A stretch of DNA of 64,000 nt from an uncultured Chloroflexia bacterium (GTDB taxonomy: Bacteria > Chloroflexota > Anaerolineae > Anaerolineales > UBA4823): contig CAWBUW010000012.1 of assembly GCA_963792075.1 (NCBI GenBank), positions 2,099,840 to 2,163,839 of the forward strand, read 5' to 3'. The position numbers and the translations under genes are program-made. Shown piece by piece: positions 8,356-56,726 of this stretch. Each line of letters starts with the position of its first letter. Within the stretch, counting starts at the first letter, position 1. The notes below the pieces were generated by a model, which saw only the letters and a program-made list of their open reading frames with translations, searched no databases and was not told the DNA's origin.

Positions 8356-9363
8356 ATGGATTGGAGCCAACAAGTTGTTCTGGTGACTGGAGGAACGGGG
8401 TCTTTTGGCAAGCAGTTTGTCGAGATCATGCTCCAGGAGTGCCATCCGGCCAAGCTGATCGTTTTCAGCCGGGATGAGTTGAAACAACACGAGATGCGCG
8501 TGGCGGGTTTAGATCACCCCGACCTGCGCTATTTTATCGGGGACGTACGCGACGTGGAGCGCTTGCGCCGTGCCATGCACGGGGTAACCGTCGTGGTGCA
8601 CGCTGCGGCGTTGAAGCAGGTGCCGGCGTGCGAATACAACCCCATGGAAGCGATCAAGACCAATATCCTGGGCAGCAGCAACGTGATTGAGGCGGCGCTG
8701 GATGCGGGGGTGAAGCAGGTCCTGGCACTGAGTACCGATAAAGCGGTCAACCCGGTGAACCTGTATGGCGCCACCAAGTTGGCCGCAGAAAAGTTGTTTG
8801 TGCAAAGCAACTCGTACGCCGCCGGGACGAGAACCCGCTTTAGCTGCGTGCGCTATGGCAACGTCGTCGGCAGCCGCGGCAGCGTGGTGCCGGTCTTTAT
8901 CCGCCAACGCCAGACCGGCAAGTTGACCATTACCGACGACCGCATGACGCGCTTCTGGCTGACGCTGGACCAGGGTGTGCGTTTCGTGATCCACTGCATC
9001 GAGCAGATGCAGGGGGGCGAAGTGTTTGTGCCCAAGATCCCCAGCACACGCATCATTGACCTGGCGCGGGTGATCGCCCCAGAAGCGGAATATGACATTG
9101 TGGGAATTCGCCCGGGTGAGAAGCTGCATGAGGTGCTGATCTCAGAAGATGAATCGCGCTCAACGGTGGAGCGGGAGGAAATGTTCATCGTCAAGCCTGC
9201 CGCGACTCTGTGGCAGCGTGACCTGGCGTATGAAGGCAAGCCGCTGCCAGACGGCTTCCGCTATTCCAGCGACAACAACCCGGTCTGGTTAACCGAAGCG
9301 CAGATCCGGGAGATTGTGGCTCCCTTCGAAAAAGGGTCTACGCTGCAGGAGGCGGTTGGGTAA
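8356..9363 (+). CDS. pseB: UDP-N-acetylglucosamine 4,6-dehydratase (inverting), PseB/FlaA1 type
   Basis: VTGGTGSFGK, SRDELKQ, FIGDVRD, YGATKLAAEK, RYGNVVGSRGSVVP and IRPGEKLHE blocks are collinear with the PseB sequence as I recall it. Confidence 0.85.
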   Translation: MDWSQQVVLVTGGTGSFGKQFVEIMLQECHPAKLIVFSRDELKQHEMRVAGLDHPDLRYFIGDVRDVERLRRAMHGVTVVVHAAALKQVPACEYNPMEAIKTNILGSSNVIEAALDAGVKQVLALSTDKAVNPVNLYGATKLAAEKLFVQSNSYAAGTRTRFSCVRYGNVVGSRGSVVPVFIRQRQTGKLTITDDRMTRFWLTLDQGVRFVIHCIEQMQGGEVFVPKIPSTRIIDLARVIAPEAEYDIVGIRPGEKLHEVLISEDESRSTVEREEMFIVKPAATLWQRDLAYEGKPLPDGFRYSSDNNPVWLTEAQIREIVAPFEKGSTLQEAVG

Positions 9364-19649: not shown

Positions 19650-19687
19650 CTACCCCAGGCAATTGCCCCGAATGCAATGGAAAAGGA

Positions 19688-21162: not shown

Positions 21163-21165
21163 CCC

Positions 21166-22419: not shown

Positions 22420-22424
22420 AGCCA

Positions 22425-23297: not shown

Positions 23298-23320
23298 TTC
23301 TGGCGGAAGAGGGAATAGAC

Positions 23321-24973: not shown

Positions 24974-24983
24974 GGCGGTATCC

Positions 24984-25934: not shown

Positions 25935-25943
25935 GGGAAGCTG

Positions 25944-27604: not shown

Positions 27605-27622
27605 TGGATTGTCAAATCTGTT

Positions 27623-27667
27623 TTTATTGTTTGTTTGAGCGCCGAAGGCGCTCAAACAAACAATAAA
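27623..27667. repeat. 45-nt perfect hairpin (21-bp arms, GAA loop) between genes
   Basis: TTTATTGTTTGTTTGAGCGCC-GAA-GGCGCTCAAACAAACAATAAA. Next gene has an AGGAG SD and ATG at 27700. Confidence 0.7.
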
Positions 27668-27699
27668 TTACCTTTGACAAACGAATAGGAGTTTTGTAA

Positions 27700-28479: not shown

Positions 28480-28481
28480 AC

Positions 28482-31076: not shown

Positions 31077-31086
31077 GAGGCGTTTT

Positions 31087-32819: not shown

Positions 32820-32826
32820 ATTATTT

Positions 32827-33633: not shown

Positions 33634-33670
33634 CGACTCTTTCTGGCCTTGGATCCGTTATTACTTGCAT

Positions 33671-34240: not shown

Positions 34241-34241
34241 C

Positions 34242-36158
34242 ATGTTAGATTTGGATAGCTTACTGCAACAGAGTTTAAAGGACCTTGAAGAAGGGAAAGT
34301 CTTGGAAGCGGTGCTGGCAGATTTGCCGGCGGAAGCTGCAGAACTAAGGCCTTTGATTGAAACTGCTGCCCGTCTCCGAGCAGGCCCGCCGATTGTAATG
34401 CCTCAACCGCAGCGAACGGCGCTGCGGGCGCAGGTGATTGAAACCGCCCGGCGTGAGATCCCAACGGTGAAATCCCCTCAGCAGAGCGCTTGGGGATGGC
34501 TTGGCGTCCCGGCTGTTTTCGGAGTGCTGACGGTTTTCTTAGTGACTGCGCTTGTGTTGGGTGGCCTGGGGCTCTGGTTTGCAGGCCCTCCAACCGCTCA
34601 TGCAGCGGAATTGGTAGAGATCACCGGCCCGGTGGAAGTAGCCACTTTCCGTGCGCCGGATGCCTGGAAGGCCGTGACGGATGCCAGCCGCATCCACGCA
34701 GGCGACTTCGTGCGCACAGGCCCTGGAGGCAGCGCGGCATTGGTTTATTTTGACGGTAGCCGCACGGCGATTGGCGAAAACACCCAATTGACCCTGACCC
34801 GTCTGGATGGACAGTGGGGCAAAGTGCTTCAGGTAGAAATAACCCAACAAATGGGTGAGACCTGGCACAGCGTGGTTCCATTCAAGGGTAAACAGGCGCT
34901 CTTCGTTGTATTCACACCAACCGGCGAAGCACGCGTGCATGGTACCCAGTTCAGTGTCCTGGTAGGAGCGAATGGTGTTTCCCGGATGGCTGTGGAAAGA
35001 GGCGTCGTAGCTGTTTCCAGTGAAGCGGGCGAGATTGACCTGACTGCGGGCCAAACATCACGGTTGGACGCAGGCCAGGCGCCTCAGTTGATGGGGTACG
35101 GGTTCAGTTTGAACGAACCTCTGGTCGCGGCAGACAAAGGCCAATTGATATTGGCGGATATGACGATCCAGATGAACGATCAAACCATGTTATCCAATGA
35201 GGGCTTGAAGAGCGGCCTGGTCCACATTGAAGGTTATGTCCAGGCGGATGGCAGTTGGATGGCAGACAGCGTGGGGCTAACCACACAACCTGGCGATAAG
35301 AGCTCCCATTTCTCAGGCAAGATCGAGACAATGGAAGGCGACCTTTGGCAGATCGGCGGCGAGTCGGTCCTGGTGAATGACGTCACCGAATTAAAAGGGA
35401 ACCTGGCAGTGGGGCAGGTTGTCAAAGTTGAGTTTGTCAACCTGGATGGGGGACGCTGGCTGGCGCTGGAGATTAAGGCGCTCGACGACGTAGAAGATGA
35501 AGGTGAACTGACCAGTGGAGAACCTGTAACAGGAACTACCACAGGAACTGTGACAGGAACTGTGACAGGAACTATAACTGGAACTGTTACGGCCTGCACC
35601 GGCTCAGAACCGCACCCCACCGGAACAGAACTGGCCCAGCGCTACAGCGTGCCATACGAAGAGATCATGGGATGGTTCTGCCAGGGTTTCGGTTTTGGTG
35701 AGATCGATCTCGCTTACAGCCTGGCATTGGAAACGGGTTTGCCGGTCGATCAAATCTTCGCCATGAAGCAAAACGGAATGGGCTGGGGCAATGTCCGCCG
35801 AGAGCTGAGTTTTAGTACCACGGTGACCACTACAGTCCCGGTTGAGATAAACCTTGAAGGTGAACCGCTGAACCAGGGCGCGATGTGCACCGGCCAGAAC
35901 GTTCACCCGACAGGGACCCGCTTAGCCGAGCGCTTTGGGGTTCCATATGAACAGGTAATGACCTGGTTCTGCCAGGGGTACGGTTTTGGTGAAATTGACA
36001 TGGCTTATACCCTGAGCAAACAGAGCGGAACGCCGGTGGAACAAATCTTTGCGCTCAAGCAAGGCGGCATGGGTTGGGGCGAGATCAAGAAACAGTTCGA
36101 GACCGTAAATACTCCGCCGGGAAAAGATCCAAAAGATAAAAAACAGCACAAACCGTAA
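34242..36158 (+). CDS. Membrane-anchored anti-sigma-like protein: TM helix, FecR-like domain, DUF5666-like barrel, TG-rich linker and two C-terminal Cys/His repeats of about 70 aa
   Basis: Starts 1 nt after the sigma stop. TM WLGVPAVFGVLTVFLVTALVLGGLGLWF, FecR-like GDFVRTGPGGSAALVYFDGSRTAIGENTQL. Repeats at 35595-35810 and 35886-36099. Confidence 0.6.
   Translation: MLDLDSLLQQSLKDLEEGKVLEAVLADLPAEAAELRPLIETAARLRAGPPIVMPQPQRTALRAQVIETARREIPTVKSPQQSAWGWLGVPAVFGVLTVFLVTALVLGGLGLWFAGPPTAHAAELVEITGPVEVATFRAPDAWKAVTDASRIHAGDFVRTGPGGSAALVYFDGSRTAIGENTQLTLTRLDGQWGKVLQVEITQQMGETWHSVVPFKGKQALFVVFTPTGEARVHGTQFSVLVGANGVSRMAVERGVVAVSSEAGEIDLTAGQTSRLDAGQAPQLMGYGFSLNEPLVAADKGQLILADMTIQMNDQTMLSNEGLKSGLVHIEGYVQADGSWMADSVGLTTQPGDKSSHFSGKIETMEGDLWQIGGESVLVNDVTELKGNLAVGQVVKVEFVNLDGGRWLALEIKALDDVEDEGELTSGEPVTGTTTGTVTGTVTGTITGTVTACTGSEPHPTGTELAQRYSVPYEEIMGWFCQGFGFGEIDLAYSLALETGLPVDQIFAMKQNGMGWGNVRRELSFSTTVTTTVPVEINLEGEPLNQGAMCTGQNVHPTGTRLAERFGVPYEQVMTWFCQGYGFGEIDMAYTLSKQSGTPVEQIFALKQGGMGWGEIKKQFETVNTPPGKDPKDKKQHKP
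35529..35588 (+). repeat. Five tandem 12-nt units (ACAGGAACTGTG consensus) encoding (TGTV)n
   Basis: acaggaactacc acaggaactgtg acaggaactgtg acaggaactata actggaactgtt, read directly from the sequence. Confidence 0.8.
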
Positions 36159-36946: not shown

Positions 36947-38140
36947 TTATCCAGCCAGTATGGTGACTACCTCGCGCAGGGCTGAGCAAACGGAATCTAC
37001 CTGAGCTTCGCTCATCACACTGGAGAACGGCAGAGCCAACCCGCGGGCGCCGAGGTCTTCGGTAATGGGGAAATCGCCCCGCAGATAGCCAAACCGTTTG
37101 ACCATATACGGCTGCAGGTGAATGGGGATGAAATAAGGGCGGGCGGGCACACCGCGGTCAGCCAGTGCCCTGGCAACGGCGCCGCGTTCCAAAGATGCGT
37201 CGAAGCGCACCACGTAAACAAACCAGCTCATGCGCGTAGTTGTCTCAACGATACGGGGTGCCTGCACCAGCGGGATTTCGGCGAGGCGTTCGGCGTACCA
37301 GCCGGCGACCTGCTGCCGGCAATCCAGCAGCTCATCCAGGCGGGTCATTTGTACACGGCCCAGGGCAGCGCTCATTTCATCCAGGCGGTAGTTATAGCCC
37401 AGGTAAGTGTGGTCCAGCCAGGTATCGCCTGGGGCACGACCCTGGTTGCGCAGGGCGCGCATCATGGCTGCTGCCTGGTCATCGTCCGTGACGATCAGAC
37501 CGCCTTCCCCGGTCGTGATCTGCTTGTTGGGATAAAAGGCAAACACGCCATAATCCCCCATCGTTCCGGCCTGGCGGCTTTTGTAGGTCGCGCCAAGCGC
37601 TTCGCAGGAGTCCTCGATCAGTTTTATCCCATATTTCTGAGCTGTGTCTCGCAAGGGATCATAATCGGCAGGCTGGCCAAAGACATCTACCGCCAGGATC
37701 GCTTTCAGTGAAGTAACCGCATGAGCCCCTTTGCGCGGCAGCCAGCGCTGGATGGCAGCACCACCTGCCGAAAGGTCAGCCGCAGCCTGCTGGACCAATA
37801 CAGGATCAATATTCCCTGTGACGGGATCGACATCCACGAAAACGGGCACGGCGCGCTCAAACAGCAGCACGTTGCTCGAAGCAACAAAGGAGAAAGGTGT
37901 GGTAATTACCAGGTCGCCTTCCCCAATGCCGGCAGCATGCACACATAAGTGCAGCCCGGCAGTCCCAGAGTTGACTCCGATGGCGTGCTTGAGACCGGTT
38001 TGCTTCGTGAAGGCGGATTCGAAGGCGGTAATTTCGCCTCCCATACTCAGGTTGGGTGTGCGCAGCACCGCGGCAACGGCCTGGCGTTCAGCATCTGTCA
38101 AATCGGGAGACGACATAGGAATTGTAAATTCTGGGGGCAT
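36947..38140 (-). CDS. DegT/DnrJ/EryC1/StrS-family PLP-dependent sugar aminotransferase
   Basis: FAFYPNKQITTGEGG PLP-lysine block, GVNSGTAGLHL. Alternative start at 38116. Confidence 0.85.
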   Translation of the reverse strand: MPPEFTIPMSSPDLTDAERQAVAAVLRTPNLSMGGEITAFESAFTKQTGLKHAIGVNSGTAGLHLCVHAAGIGEGDLVITTPFSFVASSNVLLFERAVPVFVDVDPVTGNIDPVLVQQAAADLSAGGAAIQRWLPRKGAHAVTSLKAILAVDVFGQPADYDPLRDTAQKYGIKLIEDSCEALGATYKSRQAGTMGDYGVFAFYPNKQITTGEGGLIVTDDDQAAAMMRALRNQGRAPGDTWLDHTYLGYNYRLDEMSAALGRVQMTRLDELLDCRQQVAGWYAERLAEIPLVQAPRIVETTTRMSWFVYVVRFDASLERGAVARALADRGVPARPYFIPIHLQPYMVKRFGYLRGDFPITEDLGARGLALPFSSVMSEAQVDSVCSALREVVTILAG

Positions 38141-38193
38141 AGGCTAATCTTCGGGTGACCTTTGAATGGTTTGTAGGGTAGGGTTCTCTGGGA

Positions 38194-39318
38194 TCAGGGT
38201 TTGTCGGATGGCCAGGTGGTGCCGGCGCGTACGATCCCCCCCTCGGGAACGTCGGACTTGACCACCGCGCTGTTACCAATGCGCGCGCCTTGTCCAATCA
38301 CAGCGCGCAGGTTGATGGTTGCCCCCATGCCGATCAGGACACCTGCGCCTACCTGCACCTGTCCTGCGAGGATGGAACCTGGCGAGAGGTTGGCGAAATC
38401 GCCGACCTGGCATTCGTGAGAGACGATCGCTCCGGTGTTGACGATTGCGCCGTAACCAAGGTGGGTTTCGCTGCCCACGTAAGCGTGAGGGAAGACCTGT
38501 ACACCCGCGGCCAGGCTGGCAGAAGGCTCGACGAAAGCAGTCGGATGGACCAGCGCCGGGCAGGCGAAACCGGCCTGGGTGAGACGCTGGAAAATCAAGA
38601 TGCGGATGCTGACATTACCGATGCCTCCCACGGCATTTACGGCCAGGCGCACACCGCGGCGGTGCAGCTCGGGGAGCTGGTCGGCACCACCCAGGAGCGG
38701 CACCCCCATCATTTGGGGCGTCTCGGCAGGGTCCATGCCATCATCCACGATACCGGCAATGTGAAAGGTGCCCAGGGCGCGGATTAAATCGATCAACGCC
38801 TTGGCATGCCCACCGCCGCCATAGACCAGGATCGCTGTAGGGTCGAACTCGCCGGAGGGGGGAGCAAAATCGGGCCGGTTAAGGTGTTCAATCCGCTTCT
38901 GGATGTCGCGTTCGGTGATCAGGGTGCCTGTGGGTAGCTCGCTCAGGTCAAGCTTGTGCTGGCGGGCTAGCGCCACAGCGGGTTGGGTGATGCGCAGGCC
39001 CTCAGGGAGCTGTTCTGGAGTGCCCGTCTTGCCTGGAAGTGGCTGCTCTCTGGCCGGCGGCTGCCAGTCAGGCGAGGGTGCCAGGTAGCACAGCAGGTCT
39101 CCGGCACGGGCGGTCTGGCCCTGCGCCAGGCGCAAGCCCACCACGTAACCGTCCTTTTCGGCCTGTAAATCCGCAGTGGATTTGGTGGTTTCCAACGTAC
39201 AAAGCAGGTCACCGGAGGCAACCAACTGGCCCTCTTGTACGTGCAGAGCGGCGAGCTGCGCTTCAGGCTCATTGGGGTTGAGCAGGGGGATGGTGACGGA
39301 AAAGGGTTCAGTCTGCAT
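38194..39318 (-). CDS. Chimeric E2-like protein: lipoyl domain + peripheral-subunit-binding domain + PglD/NeuD-type left-handed beta-helix acyltransferase
   Basis: N-terminal CTLETTKSTADLQAEKDGYV (lipoyl-lysine context). LRITQPAVALARQHKLDLSELPTGTLITERDIQKRI (PSBD-like). ILVYGGGGHAKALIDLI Rossmann-like PglD_N plus hexapeptide repeats. ATG at 39318; the upstream ORF extension is rejected. Confidence 0.7.
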   Translation of the reverse strand: MQTEPFSVTIPLLNPNEPEAQLAALHVQEGQLVASGDLLCTLETTKSTADLQAEKDGYVVGLRLAQGQTARAGDLLCYLAPSPDWQPPAREQPLPGKTGTPEQLPEGLRITQPAVALARQHKLDLSELPTGTLITERDIQKRIEHLNRPDFAPPSGEFDPTAILVYGGGGHAKALIDLIRALGTFHIAGIVDDGMDPAETPQMMGVPLLGGADQLPELHRRGVRLAVNAVGGIGNVSIRILIFQRLTQAGFACPALVHPTAFVEPSASLAAGVQVFPHAYVGSETHLGYGAIVNTGAIVSHECQVGDFANLSPGSILAGQVQVGAGVLIGMGATINLRAVIGQGARIGNSAVVKSDVPEGGIVRAGTTWPSDKP

Positions 39319-39341
39319 GGTGAGAATTATACCCGTATGTC

Positions 39342-40418
39342 TCAAGACTGGCTGGCGATCCTGGCTGCGATGAAAATGTCCTCGACGCCGGGCAGCGTGG
39401 CGGCCTCCAGGGGTCCAGAGGCAGGAATGGGATGTTCGTGGGCGGCCAGGCGGCGAGCGCTTTTGAGCCGGGGACCCAGGGCTTCGGCTGCCTGCGCCAG
39501 CACCTCTGCACCCCAACCCAGAGCCAGGGTGCCCTCTTCAATGGCAAGCAGGCGACCTGTGCGGCCGACCGAGGCGATCAAAGGAGCCAGCTCGAAGGGA
39601 GCAAGCTGCGTCGGGATGACTAATTCGACGAATACCTCGGCTTCGTAGGCCAGGCGCAAGGCCGCCTGGCGGGCAAGCTCGGCCATGTGCCCATATGCTG
39701 CCAGCGTGAGGCTGGCCGGGGGGGCGCCCTGGATGGAGAGCGTATAGGTGGGGCAGGGCAGCGGTGTCAGGCAGGATACGGCGGCTCCCGCGTGGGTTTG
39801 CAGCGTGAAGTCGGGCAGCGCAGCCGCGTCCTGGACGGGCTGCAAGTAAAGCAGTTTATTTTCAATAAATAGAGCAGGGTCTTCACCCAGCAGCACCTGG
39901 CGGTAGAGCAGATCGGCCGGGCCACCGTAAGGGAAGGGGCTGGCGGAGGGAAGCTTTGAATACTGCAGGGCACACGGGGCCAGGATGCGCAGTCCGGGAA
40001 TACCGAGGAATAGCTTCTCCAGGGTCTGCGAGTGGGTAGGGCCATAGCCGCGCCGCCCGCCCATCGGGGTGCGCAGGGTGAGCGGCAGGCGCACCTGGTC
40101 ATTGTACATCCAGCGGAACTTGGCGATGTGATTGACGATCTGGTCCGCAGCCAGCGTGATGAAATCACCGAACATGATCTCAACAACCGGGCGCAAGCCG
40201 CGCAAGGCCATGCCGGCGGCCACGCCGACGATGCCGGCTTCGGAGATGGGCGTGGTCAGGACACGCTGGGGATAGGCGCTGGACAGGCCGCGGGCAACTT
40301 TGAAAGCGCCGCCATAGGGATCAAGCAGGTCTTCACCGAGCAAGTAGACGCGTTCGTCCTCAGCGAACAGACGGTGAAGACAGGCATTCAGAGCATCGAG
40401 TACAGTCTGGGATGGCAT
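39342..40418 (-). CDS. TPP-dependent 2-oxoacid (pyruvate/acetoin/branched-chain type) dehydrogenase E1 beta subunit
   Basis: YLLGEDLLDPYGGAFKVARGL..TPISEAGIVGVAAGMALRGLRPVVEIMFGDF blocks. Confidence 0.85.
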   Translation of the reverse strand: MPSQTVLDALNACLHRLFAEDERVYLLGEDLLDPYGGAFKVARGLSSAYPQRVLTTPISEAGIVGVAAGMALRGLRPVVEIMFGDFITLAADQIVNHIAKFRWMYNDQVRLPLTLRTPMGGRRGYGPTHSQTLEKLFLGIPGLRILAPCALQYSKLPSASPFPYGGPADLLYRQVLLGEDPALFIENKLLYLQPVQDAAALPDFTLQTHAGAAVSCLTPLPCPTYTLSIQGAPPASLTLAAYGHMAELARQAALRLAYEAEVFVELVIPTQLAPFELAPLIASVGRTGRLLAIEEGTLALGWGAEVLAQAAEALGPRLKSARRLAAHEHPIPASGPLEAATLPGVEDIFIAARIASQS

Positions 40419-40430
40419 ACGCGGCTGGTA

Positions 40431-41318
40431 TCAGGGTGAAGGATAAGGGTCTTGTAAAGCCTGGGTGAATGCATGGGCGATTTCAGTGTCCACCTGGGAT
40501 TGAATAAGGGAGAGCTCGGTAGGAGGGATACGGGCTGCCTGCAAGGTGAGCGGGTCGCGGGTCTGGCGCAGGTGGCCCACTTCCTCGGAGGAACGGGTAT
40601 CATCGCCTTTCGAATGTGGGCCAAAACGGCAGGTGTGCAGGATCAAGCCCTGCGGTGTGCGCTGCTGGCGGGCTTCGGCCAGCAATGCGGCTGCGGTGGG
40701 GCAGATTTCCTGCACATCGCTGGTATCCAGTTCTGCCGCCGGGATGCCAAAAGCCGAGAAGCGGGCCGGCATGCTGCCCGCCACGCCCAGGGCAGAGGGG
40801 GTGGTTTGCGCAATGTTATTGGCTTCGAGCACATACAGGATGGGAAGCTGCCACAGAGAGGCCAGGTTGAGCGCTTCATATACAACGCCCTCGCCGAGCG
40901 TGCCATCCCCAATGAAAACGATCGTCACCGCCTGGGTCTTTTTGGCTTTTTCTGCCAATGCCATGCCTGTGGCGACGGGGACAATGCCACCTTGGACGCC
41001 GTTCGAATAAAAATCGCGCCAGTGCAGATGCTGCGAGCCGCCGCGCCCTCCACACACGCCGGTGGATTTGCCCATCAGCTCGGCGAATAAGGCGCGCGGG
41101 TCGCCGCCATAGGCCAGGAAATGACCGTGGCAGCGGTGGTTGCTGAATACTGGATCGCCTGGTTGTATGTGCGAAAGCACCCCCACGGCATTCGCCTCTT
41201 GTCCAAGATAGGTGTGGGTGGTGCCAAAGAAGACCCCTTTGGGAAAGTTGTCCAGCACGGTCTCTTCGAAACGCCGGATGCGGTAAAGCTCCCGGTATAA
41301 ATCGGCGGGGTTAACCAT
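40431..41318 (-). CDS. TPP-dependent 2-oxoacid dehydrogenase E1 alpha subunit
   Basis: TPP motif FIGDGTLGEGVVYEALNLASLWQLPILYVLEANN. YRIRRFEE N-terminal block. Confidence 0.85.
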   Translation of the reverse strand: MVNPADLYRELYRIRRFEETVLDNFPKGVFFGTTHTYLGQEANAVGVLSHIQPGDPVFSNHRCHGHFLAYGGDPRALFAELMGKSTGVCGGRGGSQHLHWRDFYSNGVQGGIVPVATGMALAEKAKKTQAVTIVFIGDGTLGEGVVYEALNLASLWQLPILYVLEANNIAQTTPSALGVAGSMPARFSAFGIPAAELDTSDVQEICPTAAALLAEARQQRTPQGLILHTCRFGPHSKGDDTRSSEEVGHLRQTRDPLTLQAARIPPTELSLIQSQVDTEIAHAFTQALQDPYPSP

Positions 41319-41364
41319 GTCGAGAATTATACTTCACACTGGGGGTTGGCTTGGATGGTTGAGA

Positions 41365-42006
41365 TCAATCATCGTCAAAACAGTGGAAATCGACCGGTGA
41401 GCCCCTGAACTCTTCGGCAGTGGCATGACCAGGCTGGCTGATGCCTTCACGCTGGAAGACTTTCCATATCGTCAGAGCAAGGATTTTGATATCCAACCAG
41501 ATCGAATGATGATCTACATACCATACATCCAGGCAGAACTTCTGCTCCCAGGTGATGGCGTTGCGCCCGTTGACCTGTGCCCAGCCGGTGATGCCGGGCA
41601 GCACGTGATGGCGGCGGGCCTGTTCAGGAGAGTAGCGGTCGAGGTACTGCATGAGCAGTGGGCGGGGCCCGACCAGGCTCATTTCACCGTGTAAAACGTT
41701 GTACAATTCAGGCAGCTCATCCAGGCTGGTTGCACGCAGGAAGCGTCCCAGGCGAGTCAGGCGCAGTACATCCGGGAGCAGGTTGCCTTGAGCATCGCGG
41801 GCATTGGTCATGGTGCGGAACTTGTACAGCGTGAATGGGCGACCCAGGAAACCAGGGCGTTGCTGGGAAAAAAGGACCGGCCAACCATGGAAGATCCGGA
41901 CAAGCAAGACGAGCAGCAGCAGCAGGGGTGAGATTACGATCAGGCCGGGGATGGTCAGCAGGATGTCAAAGATACGTTTCGAAATGGGGATCGACGGCAC
42001 GTGCAT
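41365..42006 (-). CDS. PglC/WbaP-C-type monotopic phosphoglycosyl transferase (initiating sugar-1-phosphate transferase)
   Basis: [23 protein letters not shown] re-entrant helix, [32 protein letters not shown] at 42006; the upstream extension translates a palindrome. Confidence 0.85.
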
Positions 42007-42100: not shown

Positions 42101-42138
42101 TAAAAGAACATCCCTGCCGCTGTTCAGCGACAGGGATG
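42101..42138 (-). terminator. Probable rho-independent terminator of lexA
   Basis: Minus strand: CATCCCTG-t-CGCTG-aa-CAGCG-g-CAGGGATG followed by TTCTTTTA. Confidence 0.55.
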
Positions 42139-42169
42139 CCTGTTCTTCGGAAATGGGGGATAGTTAGAT

Positions 42170-43150: not shown

Positions 43151-43591
43151 ATGCCAAAAGACCTGGTCACCTCATTGTTATACGCCCGCCGGATGCCGGT
43201 GTTGGGCCGGGCGGCGTATTATGCACTGAAGCTGTTAGGCGTCGAGGTGCCGCTTTCGGTGCCGGTTGGACCAGGCTGCGAGTTGGAGCATGGCGGTTTT
43301 GGGGTGGTGATCCATTCCAAAGCGCGGCTCGGCAGCCGGGTGAAGCTTTATCCGGGTGTAACTTTAGGTCGGGCAGATATTTACCGGCCAGCCACGCAGT
43401 CCAGGTTCGAGGGGATTGTGATCGAAGATGACGTGATCCTGTGCCCAGGCGCAAAAGTGTTATGTAAAGAAGGGGTGCTGGTGGTTGGCCGGGGCACGGT
43501 CCTTGGAGCGAACGCGGTGTTGTTGGGCTCCACGGGTGAAAATGAAATTTGGGCCGGCGTGCCGGCGCGCTGTGTGGGGAAGCGGGAATAG
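43151..43591 (+). CDS. Serine-acetyltransferase-like hexapeptide O-acetyltransferase
   Basis: Left-handed beta-helix repeats GFGVVIHSKARLGSRVKLYPGVTLG..IVIEDDVILCPGAKVL. 146 aa. Confidence 0.7.
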   Translation: MPKDLVTSLLYARRMPVLGRAAYYALKLLGVEVPLSVPVGPGCELEHGGFGVVIHSKARLGSRVKLYPGVTLGRADIYRPATQSRFEGIVIEDDVILCPGAKVLCKEGVLVVGRGTVLGANAVLLGSTGENEIWAGVPARCVGKRE

Positions 43592-43594
43592 GAT

Positions 43595-44620
43595 ATGGGG
43601 ATGAAGCGCGTCTGCCTCGTGCCTCGTTTACGCGGTGTGGGCGGGATGGTCTCTTTCCAGGCCAAGCTGGCGGCCGGGTTGGAACGCCAGGGATATGCCG
43701 TCAGCTACGACCTGTCCGACCGTCCTTACCAGGCGGTCCTGGTGATTGGCGGAACGAGCTCGCTGCGCGGGCTGCTCCAGGCCCGGCGAGAAGGCGCGCG
43801 GATCGTGCAGCGCCTGGATGGGATGAATTGGATCCATCGCCTGCGCCATACAGGGGTGAAACACTACCTGCGCGCCGAGTACGGCAACCTGGTCCTTTCG
43901 CAAATCCGGCGCCGGATAGCAGAGCGGATTGTCTACCAGAGCGCTTTCAGCCACGCCTGGTGGGAGCGAGTATATGGCTCCACGCGCCAGCCCTGGTCCA
44001 TGGTGCATAATGGAGTGGACTTGCAGGCGTATACGCCCTCCGGTGAGCAAGATCGCCCCTCCGACCGTTTTCGCTTGCTCCTGGTGGAAGGGAACCTGGG
44101 CGGAGGGTATGAAATCGGATTGGAAACAGGAGTGCACCTGGCAGAGCGGCTGCAAAGCGAACAGCAGCAAAAGGTCGAATTGATGGTGGTGGGCAGGGTG
44201 ACGCCCCAATTGGCAGCAGAGTGGCAGGGCAGGGCAAGCGTGCCTCTGGTTTTCGCCGGGCTGGTGGATCGCCAGCGTATCCCGCAGATCGATCGCTCGG
44301 CGCACTTGCTGTATGCGGCAGATGTCAACGCAGCCTGTCCAAACTCGGTAATCGAGGCGCTGGCCTGTGGGCTGCCGGTCGTGGCTTTTGATACCGGTGC
44401 GCTGCCCGAACTGGTGACGGGCTCAGCCGGTCGGGTCGTGCCGTACGGAGGGGACCCCTGGCGGCTGGATCCGCCGGACATTTCAGCGTTGGCATCCGCG
44501 GCCATGGATGTGCTGGCGGAGCAAGAACGCTTCCGGGCCGGGGCCCGTCAGCGGGCAGAAGAGGCCCTTGGCTTGGAGAAGATGATAGAAGGGTATCTTG
44601 AGGTTTTGGTGGGTGGTTAA
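43595..44620 (+). CDS. GT4-family glycosyltransferase
   Basis: NSVIEALACGLPVVAFDTGALPELV motif. Confidence 0.8.
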   Translation: MGMKRVCLVPRLRGVGGMVSFQAKLAAGLERQGYAVSYDLSDRPYQAVLVIGGTSSLRGLLQARREGARIVQRLDGMNWIHRLRHTGVKHYLRAEYGNLVLSQIRRRIAERIVYQSAFSHAWWERVYGSTRQPWSMVHNGVDLQAYTPSGEQDRPSDRFRLLLVEGNLGGGYEIGLETGVHLAERLQSEQQQKVELMVVGRVTPQLAAEWQGRASVPLVFAGLVDRQRIPQIDRSAHLLYAADVNAACPNSVIEALACGLPVVAFDTGALPELVTGSAGRVVPYGGDPWRLDPPDISALASAAMDVLAEQERFRAGARQRAEEALGLEKMIEGYLEVLVGG

Positions 44621-44644: not shown

Positions 44645-45055
44645 ATGGACACAAAGCCAAAGAAAATATTTCCTGTTCTTTCAGCCCAAGAAGAGGAAAT
44701 TGGAAAGCAGGTAGTCGACGCAGCTTTCCAGGTGCATCATGCCTTAGGTCCAGGGCTGTTAGAAAATGTGTATGAGATTTGCTTTTGCCATGAGTTGGCA
44801 AAGCGCGGATTAGAATTCCAGCGGCAAGTCCCTGTGCCAATTGAATACGATGGGATCTACTTTGACGAAGCATTTCGTCTGGATGTGCTGGTTGAAAATC
44901 TGGTCATCTGTGAATTAAAGGCGCTAGATGTGCTGCTGCCGGTTCACCAGGCGCAGTTGCTAAGCTATCTTAGGCATAAACGAAAGCGGCTTGGTTACCT
45001 GATCAATTTTCACGTTCCACTGATCAAGCATGGTATTCATCGCTATGTTTTTTAA
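44645..45055 (+). CDS. GxxExxY protein (PD-(D/E)XK-like small nuclease-fold family)
   Basis: GPGLLENVYE signature, 136 aa. Markedly AT-richer than the flanking GT genes. Confidence 0.8.
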   Translation: MDTKPKKIFPVLSAQEEEIGKQVVDAAFQVHHALGPGLLENVYEICFCHELAKRGLEFQRQVPVPIEYDGIYFDEAFRLDVLVENLVICELKALDVLLPVHQAQLLSYLRHKRKRLGYLINFHVPLIKHGIHRYVF

Positions 45056-51262: not shown

Positions 51263-51293
51263 GTAATGAACCTGATTGATTGTGAGGTGCATC

Positions 51294-52748: not shown

Positions 52749-54011
52749 ATGCGCATCCTTTTTGTAGCAGATGGCCGTTCGCCGATTGCGGTGAATTGGA
52801 TCCAGTATTTCCGGAAGCCCGAATACCAGGTGCATCTGGCTTCTACTTTCCCTGTCGTTCCTGGGTTGCAAGAGCAGCTTGGCTTGCAATCGTTGCAGAC
52901 CATCCCGGTGGCTTTCAGTGGGGCAAAAGAAGCTCCAGAAGCTGGAGACGCTCCCCAGGTAGAGCGAGCGCAAACTGGCCTGTCATACCGGTTGAAGGGG
53001 CTGGTTTGGGGAGCCAGGCTGGTGGGGGTGCGCACCGCGGTCCGGCAGTGGCTGGGCCCACTCACCCTGCCCGGCGCGGCGCGCCGGCTGGAGGAAATGA
53101 TTGTACGCCTGCAGCCCGACCTGGTACACGCCATGCGCATTCCATACGAGGGGATGCTGGCAGCCCTGGCGCTGGAAAGCCACCCGAAAACACCCCTGCT
53201 GGTTTCTGTGTGGGGGAATGATTTCACGCTGCATGGGCGGGCTAATCCCTGGATGGCTTCGCTGACACGGCGGGTAATGCAGCGGGCGGATGCACTGCAC
53301 ACGGACTGTGTGCGTGACCAGCGGCTGGCCCTGGATTGGGGCTTCCGCGCAGGCAGGCCCACCCTGGTGCTGCCGGGGAATGGGGGAATTGACCTGGCGA
53401 TTTTTCGCCCGGCAGAGAGCCTGGCCGGTACGCTCCAGGTGGTCAACCCGCGTGGCGTGCGGGCCTATGTGCGTAATGACACTTTCTTTCAGGCCGCGGC
53501 TTTGGTGCTGCGGGAGCTGCCCGAGACACGCTTTGTTTGCTTGGGGATGGCGGGTGAGGCGTTGGCAGAGGGTTGGCTGCAGCAGTTGGGGATCGAGAAG
53601 CAGGTGGTCTTACTGCCGAAGTTACCCCGCGCCGGTGTGGCGGAGCTGTTTCGAGGCAGTGCGGTGGCAGTTTCACCCACCACACACGATGGAACGCCCA
53701 ATACGCTGCTGGAGGCGATGGCGAGCGGTTGTTTCCCGGTGGTAGGCGATCTCGAATCGCTGCGCGAATGGATTGTCCAGGGCCAAAACGGTTTCCTGGT
53801 GGATCCGGCTAATCCGGCAGCCCTGGCGCACGCCATCGTCGCCGCGCTGCGCCAACCGGAATTACGCCAACAAGCGGAAGGAATCAACCAACGGTTGATT
53901 GCGGAACGGGCAGAATACCAGCACTGCATGCAAGCCGCTGAAAGTTTTTATCTCCACTCCCTGCTTACATGTGGATCGCCTGTCCCTCCGCACCGTGGGC
54001 AGCTTCCATAA
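52749..54011 (+). CDS. GT4-family glycosyltransferase
   Basis: HDGTPNTLLEAMASGCFPVVGDLESLREWI motif. The 3' end overlaps the convergent lpd by 47 nt. Confidence 0.75.
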   Translation: MRILFVADGRSPIAVNWIQYFRKPEYQVHLASTFPVVPGLQEQLGLQSLQTIPVAFSGAKEAPEAGDAPQVERAQTGLSYRLKGLVWGARLVGVRTAVRQWLGPLTLPGAARRLEEMIVRLQPDLVHAMRIPYEGMLAALALESHPKTPLLVSVWGNDFTLHGRANPWMASLTRRVMQRADALHTDCVRDQRLALDWGFRAGRPTLVLPGNGGIDLAIFRPAESLAGTLQVVNPRGVRAYVRNDTFFQAAALVLRELPETRFVCLGMAGEALAEGWLQQLGIEKQVVLLPKLPRAGVAELFRGSAVAVSPTTHDGTPNTLLEAMASGCFPVVGDLESLREWIVQGQNGFLVDPANPAALAHAIVAALRQPELRQQAEGINQRLIAERAEYQHCMQAAESFYLHSLLTCGSPVPPHRGQLP

Positions 54012-55368
54012 GAACTTCACTGAGCGTTGGGTGGGCATGCACGTTCCGGGCGATCTCGGCAGGGGTGATCTCCATCATCTGCGCCAGGGTCAATTCGGGC
54101 AGCAGCTCAGTGACTTCGGGGCCGATCATGTGAGCGCCAAGGATTTCACCATATTTCGAGTCCGTGATGATCTTGACCCAGCCAGACCCTTCCCCTAACC
54201 CGAGGGCTTTGCCGTTTGCCTGGAAGGGGAAGCGGCTAACTTTGACTTCATAGCCCTTCTCTTTGGCCTGCGCTTCGGTATAACCGAATGAGGCAATCTG
54301 TGGCTGGCAGTAAGTCGCGCGCGGCATCATGGCGTAATCCAACTTGATCGTTGCGTGGCCGGCGATGTGCTCTGCACAAATAATCCCCTGGGCTGAACCA
54401 ACGTGCGCCAGCATCAGCTTGCCGGTGACATCGCCAATCGCCCAGATGCCGGGTATGTTCGTAGCCATGCGCTCGTCAATTTCGATAAAACCGCGCTCGT
54501 TGATCTGCACACCGAGTGCTTCCAACCCCAGGTTCTTGCTGTTGGGCCGGAAACCGATCGCAACCAGCGCCTGGTCTGCTTCCAGGGTGGTTTCTTTGCC
54601 TTCGTTGGAAACGACCACACGCACGCCGGTTTCGGTAGTGGCGACCGATTCAACTTTGTGGCCAATCATCGTCTTGATGCCGCGCTTCTTGAAAGCCTTG
54701 GCCAGTTCCGCGCTGGTTTCTTCATCTTCCAGGGGTACCAGCCGCGGCAGCATCTCAACGATGGTCACGTCCACGCCGTAAGCGTTCCAGACGGTTGCAA
54801 ATTCTACCCCAATCGCACCCGAGCCGATCACAATGGCGGATTGGGGAAGCTTTTCTTGCAGGATGGCTTCCTTGTAAGTAACGACTTTCTCGCCATCTAC
54901 TTTCCATGCACCCGGTACCGCCGCGCTGGCGCCCGTGGCTACGATGATGTTCTTAGCCTTAAGTGCGGTGATATTCCCATCACTGGCAGTCACTTCAACC
55001 GTATCCAGGGCGGTCATCCGGGCTGCGCCCATGTGTACTGCGATGTTATTCTTCTTCATCAAGAACCCCACGCCCTTGACCAAACGGTCCGAGACCTGGC
55101 GGCTGCGCTTGACGGCAACGCTAAAGTCAAGGGTCAGGTTTTCGAAGGCGAAGCCGAACTCTTTGCCGCGCTCGCGCAGCGTGTGGGCAACTTCAGCGTT
55201 CTTGAGCAGGGATTTAGATGGGATGCAGCCCACATTAAGGCAGACGCCCCCCAGCCACTGCTTGTCAACAATGGCGGTTTTCAGGCCAAGCTGAGCTGCA
55301 CGGATTGCGGCCACGTAGCCGCCGGGGCCAGCACCCATGATGATCGTATCGTATTGTGTTTCGCTCAC
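53965..55368 (-). CDS. lpd: Dihydrolipoyl dehydrogenase (E3)
   Basis: GAGPGGY FAD motif, redox-active CLNVGCIPSK, C-terminal HAHPTLSE. Confidence 0.9.
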   Translation of the reverse strand: MSETQYDTIIMGAGPGGYVAAIRAAQLGLKTAIVDKQWLGGVCLNVGCIPSKSLLKNAEVAHTLRERGKEFGFAFENLTLDFSVAVKRSRQVSDRLVKGVGFLMKKNNIAVHMGAARMTALDTVEVTASDGNITALKAKNIIVATGASAAVPGAWKVDGEKVVTYKEAILQEKLPQSAIVIGSGAIGVEFATVWNAYGVDVTIVEMLPRLVPLEDEETSAELAKAFKKRGIKTMIGHKVESVATTETGVRVVVSNEGKETTLEADQALVAIGFRPNSKNLGLEALGVQINERGFIEIDERMATNIPGIWAIGDVTGKLMLAHVGSAQGIICAEHIAGHATIKLDYAMMPRATYCQPQIASFGYTEAQAKEKGYEVKVSRFPFQANGKALGLGEGSGWVKIITDSKYGEILGAHMIGPEVTELLPELTLAQMMEITPAEIARNVHAHPTLSEVLMEAAHGAEGQAIHM

Positions 55369-56710: not shown

Positions 56711-56726
56711 AGAATCTCCTCTGCGA

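Follow-up and report, generated by a model that had tools for sequence, protein, structure and literature searches.

A lipoyl domain fused to a PglD/NeuD-type acyltransferase and co-inherited with E1 genes suggests an E1-driven route to N-acylated sugars

We describe an operon that encodes the two subunits of a thiamine diphosphate (ThDP)-dependent E1 together with a protein joining a lipoyl domain to a sugar N-acyltransferase. It lies in a 64,000-nucleotide stretch of DNA from an uncultured Chloroflexia bacterium (hereafter the window). E1 alpha/beta and the fusion probably form a dedicated module, which on sequence evidence would take the place of the acetyl-CoA-dependent PglD/LegH step toward a 2-acetamido-4-acylamino-2,4,6-trideoxyhexose. 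The domain architecture, the conservation of the catalytic and carrier residues and the co-inheritance of E1 with the fusion are directly supported; that dihydrolipoyl hands the acyl group straight to the sugar amine without CoA, and which acyl group this would be, we infer. The module points to an uncharacterised, probably CoA-independent bacterial route for acylating cell-surface sugars, and a literature search returned no paper on such an E1 and lipoyl-acyltransferase module.

Organization of the operon

The first-pass annotation of this DNA had claimed five close, co-directional minus-strand genes with gaps of 12-53 nt. All five are found at the positions below, and their identities are borne out by Pfam and NCBIfam matches.

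42107..42140, minus strand: terminator-like hairpin between lexA and the PglC gene (15-bp stem, then a T-rich tail; a consensus match only)
41365..42006, minus strand: PglC-type small phosphoglycosyl transferase, 213 aa (Bac_transf)
40431..41318, minus strand: ThDP-dependent E1 alpha, 295 aa (E1_dh)
39342..40418, minus strand: E1 beta, 358 aa (Transket_pyr and Transketolase_C)
38194..39318, minus strand: fusion protein, 374 aa (Biotin_lipoyl, PglD_N, Hexapep, TIGR03570)
39079..39303, minus strand: lipoyl domain of the fusion, aa 6-80 (Biotin_lipoyl, 42 bits; best matches E2p lipoyl domains)
38881..39006, minus strand: peripheral-subunit-binding-domain-like segment of the fusion, aa 105-146 (helices 112-120 and 136-146)
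38209..38835, minus strand: PglD/NeuD-type N-acyltransferase part of the fusion, aa 162-370 (TIGR03570 above cut-off)
36947..38140, minus strand: DegT-family sugar aminotransferase, 397 aa (DegT_DnrJ_EryC1)

From the end of the PglC gene to DegT, the intergenic gaps of the five co-directional open reading frames (ORFs) measure 46, 12, 23 and 53 nt. The terminator-like hairpin suggests that the operon is a transcription unit apart from lexA. No 4,6-dehydratase is encoded within the five genes according to the ORF list and Pfam. The public gene call of the fusion, 383 aa, is 9 codons longer than our 374-aa ORF, and homologues favour the ATG at 39318 as its start.

A chimeric protein with a lipoyl-type carrier lysine

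The fusion consists, in order, of a lipoyl domain, a Pro/Ala-rich linker, a helix-loop-helix segment, a PglD_N Rossmann domain and a left-handed beta-helix acyltransferase. Its Pfam matches are Biotin_lipoyl (aa 20-79, 42 bits, cut-off 22), PglD_N (aa 163-246, 41 bits, cut-off 23) and Hexapep (40 bits, cut-off 27), and the NCBIfam NeuD/PglB/VioB model TIGR03570 scores 167.5 bits (cut-off 160.8). The Pfam/NCBIfam scan found no 2-oxoacid_dh catalytic domain, in agreement with the earlier description of an E2-like chimera lacking that domain. The AlphaFold2 model has a mean pLDDT of 81, and a homologue search places the protein in a large conserved family.

In the model the lipoyl domain folds as a flattened beta-barrel (pLDDT >90). 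The candidate acyl-carrier lysine, K46 in 'LETTKS' (codon at nt 39181-39183), sits at the tip of a beta-hairpin, in the turn joining strands 38-43 and 48-52. K46 is invariant in 43/43 homologues, two Actinomycetes among them, and in all 113 diverse representatives retained after 50% clustering (identity down to 28%); in these 113 the Glu beside it is invariant too. We considered whether this domain might instead be a biotin carrier, making the module a carboxylase or transcarboxylase variant. Pfam Biotin_lipoyl cannot tell the two cofactors apart, and biotinyl domains do occur among the weaker structural and sequence matches of the fusion. However, the biotin-type A-M-K-M motif, with its Met-Lys-Met core, is absent around K46, the family context being E-T-(T/S)-K-(A/S); the family profile scores 52-80 bits against solved E2p lipoyl domains versus about 30-36 bits against biotin carriers; and what accompanies the fusion is an E1 and neither a biotin carboxylase nor a carboxyltransferase. 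A biotin carrier is thus highly improbable, and the alternative of a non-conserved lysine is contradicted by the 113 sequences.

The segment that follows the linker had been described as resembling a peripheral-subunit-binding domain. Part of this description stands: AlphaFold2 predicts helices 112-120 and 136-146 at pLDDT 81-92, and E3_binding is the top Pfam family. The family assignment falls short of the Pfam threshold, since the match reaches 15.2 bits for a cut-off of 23.7. E3_binding matches 5 of 32 homologues (best E 0.0039), the best solved-structure match is to 2eq8_C, the binding domain of Thermus E2p (E 0.26), and pairwise comparison with the binding domain of the window's own canonical E2 gave no significant similarity. 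E1 and/or E3 may dock at this segment.

The acyltransferase half and its acyl donor

The C-terminal half proved to be a bona fide PglD/NeuD member with its catalytic histidine, as judged by TIGR03570 and His301 (codon at nt 38416-38418). Profile searches matched PerB (4ea7, E 5.8e-41), the acetyltransferase domain of N. gonorrhoeae PglB (4m98, 1.5e-38) and C. jejuni PglD (1.2e-28), and Foldseek aligned the modelled domain with TM-scores of up to 0.84 (on 4m99). His301 is retained in 112/114 alignment rows and shares its column with His141 of PerB, the residue replaced in the H141N and H141A entries of that enzyme.

The fused domain shares 50-59% identity with unfused Anaerolineae PglDs, which presumably use acetyl-CoA, and the two classes differ consistently at five positions only (276, 277, 295, 297 and 328), so that nothing in the sequence indicates a loss of CoA binding. 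The arm loaded by E1 might therefore serve a CoA shuttle, in which the beta-helix domain acts as a substitute E2, acylates bound CoA and then N-acylates the sugar; the module would in that case be a local generator of scarce acyl-CoA and not a CoA-free route. This fits a domain that scores above the TIGR03570 cut-off as a normal acetyl-CoA-using PglD/NeuD member, is almost indistinguishable from its unfused paralogues and has solved relatives that all bind CoA or acetyl-CoA. Yet direct delivery explains the fusion of carrier and transferase more simply, and we know of no PglD active site with thiol-to-thiol transferase activity. In addition, every fused protein has a hydrophobic residue (L/V/I/T) at position 328, where 18 of the 19 unfused Anaerolineae paralogues carry Q, PerB carries F and the N. 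gonorrhoeae enzyme R, a hint that the donor groove of the fused proteins is somewhat remodelled. We regard a CoA shuttle as unlikely.

The E1 subunits

E1 alpha matches Pfam E1_dh (163 bits) and, at 227 bits, TIGR03182, for which the pyruvate dehydrogenase (PDH) equivalog cut-off is 394. It carries the GDG-x27-NN motif from aa 137, as expected of the ThDP-dependent E1 alpha that had been proposed, and its 'GPHS' histidine aligns with His263-Ser264 of human E1p alpha. E1 beta scores 124-151 bits against its five top matches among solved E1 beta chains and lower against the rest, and its histidine at aa 130 lies within 'THSQ', which we take to be the site of the conserved beta His128. The 'GPHS' and 'HSQ' histidines are presumably those required for reductive acylation of lipoyl. 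The module E1s, including those beside the distant fusions described below, score 197-279 bits against the window's E1 alpha, compared with 128 bits for human PDH E1 alpha, and share the motifs GTxH(T/S)xxGQE, NHRxHGH and GxGGSQH; the window's own canonical E1 gave no match to the E1 alpha query. By these sequence comparisons, the module E1s form a distinct clade that accompanies the fusion.

The same chemistry could start from a donor other than a 2-oxo acid, either an acetoin-type alpha-hydroxyketone or a ketose phosphate, with acetyl or glycolyl loaded on the arm, on the model of acetoin dehydrogenase AcoA/AcoB and of QncN/QncL. In the QncN/QncL system the loading of a lipoyl arm from ketose phosphate is documented (PMC6335953). 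Consistent with such a donor, E1 alpha stays below the PDH cut-off, its NHRxHGH differs from 'AYRAHGF' in human PDH, and several orthologues bear the JGI name 'acetoin:2,6-dichlorophenolindophenol oxidoreductase subunit alpha' (generically, 'pyruvate/acetoin dehydrogenase alpha'). These names are automatic, however, the closest solved E1 alpha is a human-type pyruvate dehydrogenase (130 bits), and neither the operon nor its relatives showed any gene linked to acetoin metabolism or to ketoses. Such a donor keeps a small but appreciable chance.

Co-inheritance of E1 and the fusion

E1 is present at 31 of the 33 genomic loci bearing the fusion, upstream on the same strand in 30 of these 31; nearly all genomes surveyed, from several lineages, show this synteny. 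No E1 was found at the loci of unfused PglD relatives (0/33) or near the close unfused Anaerolineae paralogues (0/19); 31/2 fused loci against 0/19 close paralogues gives a Fisher p of 2.8e-12, uncorrected for shared ancestry. The two fused loci without E1 in the available DNA are a 2.6-kb contig (L028) and a region of plus or minus 6 kb (L030).

The association holds for distant fusions (28-31% identity), Geobacter sulfurreducens PCA and marine metagenomes among them. In all eight distant loci with complete gene calls (L067, L068, L069, L072, L073, L074, L075 and L081), E1 lies directly upstream of the fusion with a stop/start overlap of 4-11 nt; it is a single alpha-beta polypeptide in seven and split in L069. 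The Geobacter locus occurs a second time as L080, arranged in the same way; in L071, a ninth locus that is cut, a fragment resembling E1 beta lies upstream of the fusion. L069 and L072 share the gene order dehydratase, DegT, E1, fusion, NeuB, Epimerase_2, in which the E1-fusion pair occupies the LegH position of a legionaminic-acid-type cluster. In Geobacter the pair is flanked by genes for a methyltransferase and DegT, within a flagellar glycosylation region. An Actinomycetes locus encodes, adjoining E1 beta, a second fusion of a lipoyl domain and a binding-domain-like segment to a different beta-helix acyltransferase, by its sequence a recurrence of the design independent of the main fusion.

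Together with the conservation of K46 and His301, the 31/33 loci support the original reading of an E1-loaded lipoyl arm feeding a fused sugar N-acyltransferase. The lipoyl-like domain could also be a docking or regulatory appendage, with the acyltransferase using acetyl-CoA and E1 acting elsewhere in the pathway, as might befit an acyltransferase half that looks fully acyl-CoA-competent and a module with neither a dedicated E3 nor a lipoate ligase. But the invariance of K46 and the adjacent Glu in 113 divergent sequences is hard to square with a non-catalytic domain, E1 and the fusion are co-inherited and translationally coupled, and E1 retains the histidines that we take to be specific to lipoyl acylation; to our knowledge, a lipoyl domain is the only acceptor of E1 enzymes in this class. 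We therefore hold an appendage to be quite improbable.

Proposed pathway

The following genes elsewhere in the window could assist an E1-loaded arm that delivers its acyl group directly.

8356..9363, plus strand: PseB, inverting UDP-GlcNAc 4,6-dehydratase (TIGR03589, 488 bits, cut-off 408)
53965..55368, minus strand: dihydrolipoyl dehydrogenase, E3 (TIGR01350, 562 bits, cut-off 409)
55454-56770: canonical E2, adjoining E3
56727-59129: fused canonical E1, neighbour of E3 and the canonical E2

PseB is the only candidate within the window to supply a 4-keto sugar to DegT, and its link to the operon is a presumed one. The DegT protein (DegT_DnrJ_EryC1, 356 bits), whose best NCBIfam models, PseC (281 bits) and LegC (266 bits), are both under their cut-offs, probably makes the 4-amino sugar acceptor. 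Neither an E3 gene nor a lipoate ligase gene lies within any module locus examined. The organism encodes a canonical E2 with a lipoyl domain, and E3, as supporting machinery; we assume that housekeeping enzymes lipoylate and re-oxidise the fusion, E3 presumably acting on its dihydrolipoyl arm in trans.

In the proposed pathway, a 4,6-dehydratase encoded outside the operon, possibly PseB, would give a nucleotide-linked 4-keto sugar, which DegT would convert into the 4-amino sugar. E1, with thiamine diphosphate, would cleave a small 2-oxo acid, pyruvate being the default guess and an acetoin-type donor possible, and would reductively move the acyl group onto lipoyl-Lys46. The swinging arm would bring its S-acyl-dihydrolipoyl thioester to the trimeric beta-helix domain, into the groove that normally accommodates the pantetheine arm of acetyl-CoA, where the sugar 4-amine, activated by His301, would attack it and yield the N-acyl sugar with no free acyl-CoA. 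Dihydrolipoyl dehydrogenase would then re-oxidise the arm with NAD+, and the PglC-type enzyme would transfer the sugar phosphate to undecaprenyl phosphate, starting the glycan. It may count against the direct route that, were the acyl group acetyl, no selective gain over acetyl-CoA is evident.

The PglC-type protein matches Bac_transf at 213.6 bits with 179/179 profile positions covered, and NCBIfam sugar-transferase models cover its C-terminal catalytic domain alone; its probable role is to load the completed N-acyl amino sugar phosphate onto undecaprenyl phosphate. In most Anaerolineae loci its gene is kept upstream of the one for E1 alpha.

A five-gene operon with a lipoyl-acyltransferase fusion

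The ORF listing recovered the five co-directional minus-strand genes that the first-pass annotation had read from the sequence, and Pfam and NCBIfam matches bore out each of its assignments. Positions are as follows:

36947-38140, minus strand: DegT aminotransferase (DegT), 397 aa
38194-39318, minus strand: lipoyl domain, linker and PglD/NeuD-type acyltransferase (hereafter the fusion), 374 aa
39342-40418, minus strand: E1 beta, 358 aa
40431-41318, minus strand: E1 alpha, 295 aa
41365-42006, minus strand: PglC-like transferase, 213 aa

From the PglC-like gene to DegT, the intergenic gaps are 46, 12, 23 and 53 nt; E1 alpha, E1 beta and the fusion are referred to together as the module. The PglC-like protein matches Bac_transf with 213.6 bits over the full profile, and with its 213 aa it has the features of a PglC-type monotopic phosphoglycosyl transferase; the WbaP, WcaJ and EPS models match it by their C-terminal parts only. 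WbaP and WcaJ carry a large N-terminal membrane domain, which the short PglC-type enzymes (about 200 aa) are without. A terminator-like hairpin (42107-42140) between the operon and the upstream lexA suggests that lexA is not an operon member, and in relatives lexA is found on either side of the operon and in either orientation, so that we regard it as a neighbour only. Downstream of the operon lies a deoxynucleoside kinase gene on the opposite strand.

A public gene call gives the fusion 383 aa, with a start 9 codons before the ATG at 39318 that directly adjoins the E1 beta stop (39318-39345). The shorter form is more likely, because homologues align from the ATG at 39318.

The core order in Anaerolineae is PglC, E1 alpha, E1 beta, fusion, DegT. 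Some loci of relatives have single-gene insertions, either between E1 beta and the fusion (L003, L004, L007, L025, L026, L029) or between PglC and E1 alpha (L008, L011, L012, L015, L020). The inserted genes encode NHL-repeat proteins (some of these have a membrane segment and, at the N-terminus, a zinc-ribbon-like CxxC pair), EamA/DMT-family transporters and, in L011, a TPR histidine kinase; these identities rule out the insertions as lipoate ligase or dihydrolipoyl dehydrogenase (E3). The recurring EamA/DMT transporter might be a flippase-like component.

Domain architecture of the fusion

We showed that the fusion carries Biotin_lipoyl (PF00364, aa 20-79, 42 bits against a cut-off of 22.1), PglD_N (aa 163-246) and Hexapep, the latter two also above their cut-offs. 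Its N-terminus had been read as a lipoyl domain, and the family profile agrees, giving E2p lipoyl domains 52-80 bits and biotinyl domains about 30-36. In the AlphaFold2 model (41 homologues as input, mean pLDDT 81), aa 6-80 form a beta-barrel (pLDDT >90), K46 sits in the turn that joins strands 38-43 and 48-52, and Foldseek relates this domain to the human E2p L2 domain (TM-score 0.79-0.84 on target). K46 is invariant in 43/43 and 113/113 homologues, and E43 is present in 112 of the 114 rows of the alignment of 113 full-length representatives on which our conservation counts are based. The lysine lies in the context E-T-(T/S)-K-(A/S), not A-M-K-M, and the Asp that usually precedes it is replaced by Thr or Ser. 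The domain fits the lipoyl attachment domains of the E2/H-protein type, with K46 as the predicted site of lipoylation.

The window also encodes a complete canonical 2-oxoacid dehydrogenase complex, E3 included:

53965-55368, minus strand: dihydrolipoyl dehydrogenase (E3), TIGR01350, 562 bits against a cut-off of 409
55454-56770, minus strand: canonical E2 with lipoyl, E3_binding and 2-oxoacid_dh domains
56727-59129, minus strand: fused alpha-beta E1, 800 aa

As listed, the canonical E1 and E2 frames overlap by about 44 nt. Since a canonical E2 of the lipoylated type is encoded, the gene content suggests that the organism lipoylates proteins. In the module loci examined, no gene for E3 or lipoate ligase was found; the E3 of the window could recycle the arm of the fusion.

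After the lipoyl domain, the model continues with a Pro-rich linker that is disordered, then helices 112-120 and 136-146 (pLDDT 81-92) and a second linker, the flanking Pro-rich linkers being of low confidence. The first-pass annotation had described a peripheral-subunit-binding-domain-like segment here. The compact two-helix layout following the lipoyl domain fits that description, but E3_binding (PF02817) stays below its gathering score (15.2 against 23.7 bits). E3_binding is the top Pfam family for the segment, with 5 of 32 family members matching at E up to 10 (best 0.0039), and a segment profile run against solved structures places the Thermus E2p binding domain first (E 0.26), the Thermus loop being about three residues longer than that of the helix-loop-helix. 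Pairwise comparison found no similarity between the segment and the window's own E2. Because all three binding-domain tests fell below threshold, we call the segment 'binding-domain-like' only; its resemblance is weak.

The C-terminus had been assigned to the PglD/NeuD type and not to the 2-oxoacid-dehydrogenase catalytic domains, and both halves of that assignment stand: the fusion passes TIGR03570 (NeuD/PglB/VioB; 167.5 against a curated cut-off of 160.8), and PF00198, which scores 245 bits in the canonical E2 (55454-56770), has no match in it. The model shows a Rossmann-like domain at aa 162-248 and then a beta-helix. Against solved structures, the family profile finds PerB (5.8e-41), the acetyltransferase domain of Neisseria PglB (1.5e-38), C. 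jejuni PglD (1.2e-28) and also VioB, and Foldseek agrees with this placement. The column of His301, kept in 112/114 rows, holds Asn in 4eaa (H141N) and Ala in 4eab (H141A), both PerB entries; this alignment with PerB His141 makes His301 the predicted catalytic base, the counterpart in C. jejuni PglD being His125. By descent, the fusion is a NeuD-family transferase with an added lipoyl arm; with PF00198 absent, it does not descend from E2 and may at most be its functional analogue.

The best-scoring 120 clusters (90% identity) are 60-73% identical to the window fusion and all have lipoyl, PglD_N and Hexapep. An exhaustive search of 1.84 billion representatives gave 433 proteins at E up to 1e-30, and among the best 150 of these more than 100 are single full-length matches from lipoyl domain to beta-helix, down to about 29% identity. 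Where names are given, they are 'NeuD/PglB/VioB sugar acetyltransferase', 'EpsM' or 'UDP-perosamine 4-acetyltransferase'; together with 'pyruvate/acetoin dehydrogenase' for E1, such names hide the link between the two. In one database the Geobacter fusion is named 'Acyltransferase, left-handed parallel beta-helix family, lipoyl ...', which indicates that annotators had noticed the architecture. Two long matches, P0154 (865 aa) and P0258 (638 aa), were set aside because they are tandem hexapeptide proteins that lack a lipoyl domain and lie in unrelated contexts, and a genome scan with a distant representative (P0185) returned only unrelated lipoyl-domain matches.

Co-inheritance of E1 and the fusion

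The GDG-x27-NN motif attributed to E1 alpha is present at aa 137, and E1_dh is matched; E1 beta carries Transket_pyr and Transketolase_C, which with E1 alpha completes the domain set of a heterotetrameric ThDP-dependent E1. A 'GPHS' in E1 alpha aligns with human 'GHS', and a 'THSQ' in E1 beta is conserved against solved E1 beta chains. The histidines for reductive acylation of lipoyl are His263 of the human alpha chain and His128 of the beta chain. E1 alpha falls below the cut-off of the pyruvate dehydrogenase equivalog TIGR03182 (227 against 393.85 bits); the closest solved structure is a human-type PDH E1 alpha, and some sources label the protein acetoin dehydrogenase alpha.

In a survey of one genome per species, 31 of 33 fused loci carry E1, so that the synteny on which the first-pass annotation depended extends to other genomes. 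E1 lies upstream on the same strand in 30 of these 31, usually 1-70 nt off and sometimes with one inserted gene between. The two fused loci lacking E1 are L028, a 2.6-kb contig, and L030, from Actinomycetes, with 6 kb of flank only. In contrast, E1 was not found within 6 kb of unfused PglD relatives, those without the lipoyl domain (0/33 loci). The unfused set includes 19 close Anaerolineae paralogues, for instance in Thermanaerothrix, Longilinea, Bellilinea and Flexilinea, which are 50-59% identical to the fused domain; set against these (31 with and 2 without E1, versus 0/19), the association gives a Fisher p of 2.8e-12, uncorrected for shared ancestry. That concern is mostly removed by distant lineages that also have E1 and the fusion, namely Geobacter sulfurreducens PCA (AAR36412.1; AE017180.2 around 3.31 Mb) and metagenomes of marine and other origin. 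The distant fusions (28-31% identity) all have E1 immediately upstream with a 4-11 nt overlap on the fusion start codon, and their E1s are mostly a single alpha-beta polypeptide of 645-690 aa.

These distant E1s score 197-279 bits against the window E1 alpha, where human PDH E1 alpha scores 128, and the window's canonical E1 gave no match to the E1 alpha query. Motifs common to the module E1s are GTxH(T/S)xxGQE, NHRxHGH and GxGGSQH. On sequence grounds the module E1s are placed in a clade of their own, and this shared clade, with the tight linkage, argues that E1 and the fusion evolve as one unit.

An Actinomycetes MAG (L035) contains, besides its PglD-type fusion at 5941-7068, a second and different fusion of 531 aa (7118-8713, minus strand) directly beside E1 beta (8720-9499). 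It is convergent with the PglD-type fusion. Its lipoyl domain ('IETTKAT') is combined with a binding-domain-like stretch that is more canonical ('TRKARELAQRHDIDLDAI...GFITTSDVE') and with another beta-helix hexapeptide acyltransferase; the design principle has hence appeared, or found renewed use, more than once. Both Actinomycetes loci have a sulfotransferase gene upstream.

Some E1 and DegT frames in the relatives are interrupted. In the distant contig L069, E1 beta (5999-7004) appears as two ORFs, one with Transket_pyr (127 aa) and one with Transketolase_C (201 aa), which reflects either a genuine split or a frameshift. In the long-read MAG loci L007, L026, L029 and L041, E1 or DegT matches are broken over frames, which looks like assembly error.

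Pathway context

In two distant contigs (L069, L072), E1 and the fusion replace LegH in a legionaminic-acid-type cluster, in the order 4,6-dehydratase, DegT, E1, fusion, NeuB, then Epimerase_2; CTP_transf_3 comes next in L069, and a methyltransferase stands between NeuB and Epimerase_2 in L072. In G. sulfurreducens PCA (L081, AE017180.2 3304627-3325742), E1 (652 aa), the fusion (371 aa) and DegT form a trio near flaG. The neighbours there include a 1825-aa repeat protein, a 1124-aa protein with Glyco_transf_56 and methyltransferases, and a multi-glycosyltransferase protein of >2400 aa; the region of this model organism resembles an island for glycosylation of flagellin or the surface. The module thus occupies the PglD/LegH slot across contexts, which places it, in several amino-sugar pathways, at the N-acylation that follows C4 transamination.

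The operon has no linked 4,6-dehydratase in the window. One of the window's two NeuB clusters contains a PseB (8356-9363) that scores above its equivalog cut-off, and the operon DegT is the only DegT among the window genes scanned; it is possible that this PseB supplies it. This first cluster (8356-15037, plus strand), of the nonulosonic-acid type, consists of PseB, an RmlD-like reductase, NeuB with SAF, GT4, a 509-aa protein for which no family match was found, and a cytidylyltransferase, and is without aminotransferase or N-acetyltransferase. The second NeuB cluster (18511-33633, plus strand) has an unusual gene content and encodes a GFO/IDH/MocA oxidoreductase, two short-chain dehydrogenases, a fusion of cytidylyltransferase and KdsC-like phosphatase, a short NeuB without SAF domain, a Capsule_synth protein, a second cytidylyltransferase, an MptE-like protein, three GT2 enzymes, two methyltransferases and a double GNAT. 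It also encodes a D-2-hydroxyacid dehydrogenase resembling glyoxylate/hydroxypyruvate reductase, a conceivable source of hydroxypyruvate or another 2-oxo acid.

Proposed mechanism and relation to known systems

The best-supported model is the one first proposed. E1 would reductively acylate lipoyl-K46, the acylated arm would swing to the donor groove of the beta-helix trimer, His301 would activate the 4-amine of the sugar, this amine would accept the acyl group directly, and E3 would re-oxidise the arm. Architecture, conserved residues and co-inheritance are the observed basis of the model; every chemical step we infer. We compared fused and unfused domains for loss of the CoA site and found only five consistently class-specific positions (276 F/L, 277 P/A, 295 T/A, 297 A/V and 328 L/Q), position 328 being hydrophobic (L/V/I/T) in all 113 fused representatives. 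So small a difference would be compatible with an alternative in which bound CoA shuttles the acyl group between the lipoyl arm and the sugar, an arrangement that we judge improbable. Direct transfer from lipoyl-K46 to the sugar remains our preferred model. A further reading, which we put forward tentatively and hold to be possible rather than probable, is that the module is a CoA-independent acyl-donor system for an N-acyl group without a cellular acyl-CoA pool; candidate acyls would then be glycolyl (from hydroxypyruvate or a ketose), propionyl (from 2-oxobutyrate) and formyl (from glyoxylate).

By analogy, the module would work like a 2-oxoacid dehydrogenase complex with its E2 core swapped for a sugar N-acyltransferase. 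Like such complexes (pyruvate dehydrogenase, for example), it has an E1 alpha/beta pair that keeps the ThDP motif as well as both catalytic histidines, and probably depends on the cell's dihydrolipoyl dehydrogenase. Like their E2, the fusion has an N-terminal lipoyl domain with a carrier lysine and a flexible Pro/Ala-rich linker, its short helix-loop-helix takes the place of the peripheral-subunit-binding domain, and its catalytic part is a predicted trimer, matching the building block of the E2 core. In contrast, the chloramphenicol-acetyltransferase-like domain (PF00198) is gone and a non-homologous left-handed beta-helix sugar N-acyltransferase stands instead; the presumed acceptor is a nucleotide-sugar amine and not CoA; E1, below the PDH equivalog cut-off, is placed in a separate clade; and the genes lie in loci for glycan biosynthesis instead of central metabolism.

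PglD of C. jejuni, the acetyltransferase domain of N. gonorrhoeae PglB, PerB, VioB and LegH are NeuD-family N-acetyltransferases of 4-amino-4,6-dideoxy sugars. The fusion shares with them the PglD_N Rossmann and beta-helix fold, the catalytic His with the following 'xC' motif, and the neighbourhood of a DegT aminotransferase, a PglC-type transferase, or NeuB with a NeuC-like enzyme. It differs by about 160 extra N-terminal residues (lipoyl domain and linker), by travelling with E1, and in its predicted acyl donor, its own acyl-dihydrolipoyl arm instead of acetyl-CoA. As in the bacillosamine (PglF/E/D/C) and legionaminic (LegB/C/H/G/I/F) pathways, the order would be 4,6-dehydration, C4 transamination and N-acylation, with the fusion in the PglD/LegH slot, followed by transfer to undecaprenyl phosphate or by hydrolysis/epimerisation and NeuB condensation. 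Unlike in those pathways, N-acylation has its own acyl-generating machinery, and in the window the dehydratase is unlinked to the operon.

The quinocarcin proteins QncN/QncL/QncM and the related SclQ1-4 (scleric acid) are the nearest functional precedent of the module. According to PMC6335953, which cites Peng et al. 2012, an E1-like ThDP enzyme in these systems loads a lipoyl arm for a biosynthetic purpose, and as in the module the acyl group goes to an acceptor other than free CoA; in the Qnc system, the lipoyl-borne glycolyl passes to an acyl carrier protein that serves a non-ribosomal peptide line. QncL has a normal E2-type acyltransferase domain, whereas the fusion has a beta-helix sugar N-acyltransferase and the module no carrier protein. 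AcoC-type acetoin dehydrogenase E2 proteins (lipoyl and alpha/beta-hydrolase) are a precedent for lipoyl on a non-classical catalytic domain, and NF011457 (AcoC-type) matches the N-terminal 100 residues of the fusion, the lipoyl part only; catalytic domain, acceptor and pathway are unrelated.

To our knowledge, all characterised bacterial amino-sugar N-acylations use acyl-CoA, acyl carrier protein, formyl-tetrahydrofolate or an ATP-activated acid. If the model is correct, the E1-loaded lipoyl swinging arm would be a further class of acyl donor, and the module the first 2-oxoacid-dehydrogenase-type assembly with a beta-helix sugar transferase core. It could explain unusual N-acyl groups on di-amino sugars and nonulosonic acids. 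On the more tentative reading of a CoA-independent donor system, the arm would be an acyl donor previously unrecognised in glycan biosynthesis and the module a portable cassette, which would account for some of the N-acyl diversity that is still unexplained among bacillosamine-, legionaminic- and pseudaminic-type sugars, in lineages including Chloroflexota, Actinomycetes MAGs, Geobacter and marine metagenome organisms. The module is widespread, in surface-glycan and flagellin-glycan pathways; G. sulfurreducens PCA is a cultivable and genetically tractable carrier, which makes the idea directly testable. A compact enzymatic route to N-acyl sugar variants from cheap 2-oxo acids could also be derived from it. 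The module is well supported genomically and its chemistry is predicted. Searches of the full-text literature found no description of it, though absence from the library searched is no proof of its being undescribed. The 'lipoyl' of PMC4875605 is a fatty-acyl decoration, and PMC3543383 deals with a different lipoyl carrier.

Other genes of the window

Just past lexA (43151-44620, plus strand) are a 146-aa hexapeptide-repeat protein and a GT4, a neighbourhood kept in at least two relatives (L011, L014), and two GT4 genes flank a PD-(D/E)XK nuclease-family gene (44645-45055). Between a response regulator and a GT4, 51276-52733 (plus strand) encodes a radical SAM protein with a B12-binding domain. 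At 33665-36158 (plus strand), an ECF-type sigma factor precedes a 651-aa FecR and DUF5666 protein, which contains a 'TGTTTGTVTGTVTGTITGTV' repeat and two near-identical C-terminal modules, 'HPTGT.LA.R..VPYE..M.WFCQG.GFGEID.AY'. Finally, 2636-3034 (plus strand) encodes a HEPN-domain protein of 132 aa.
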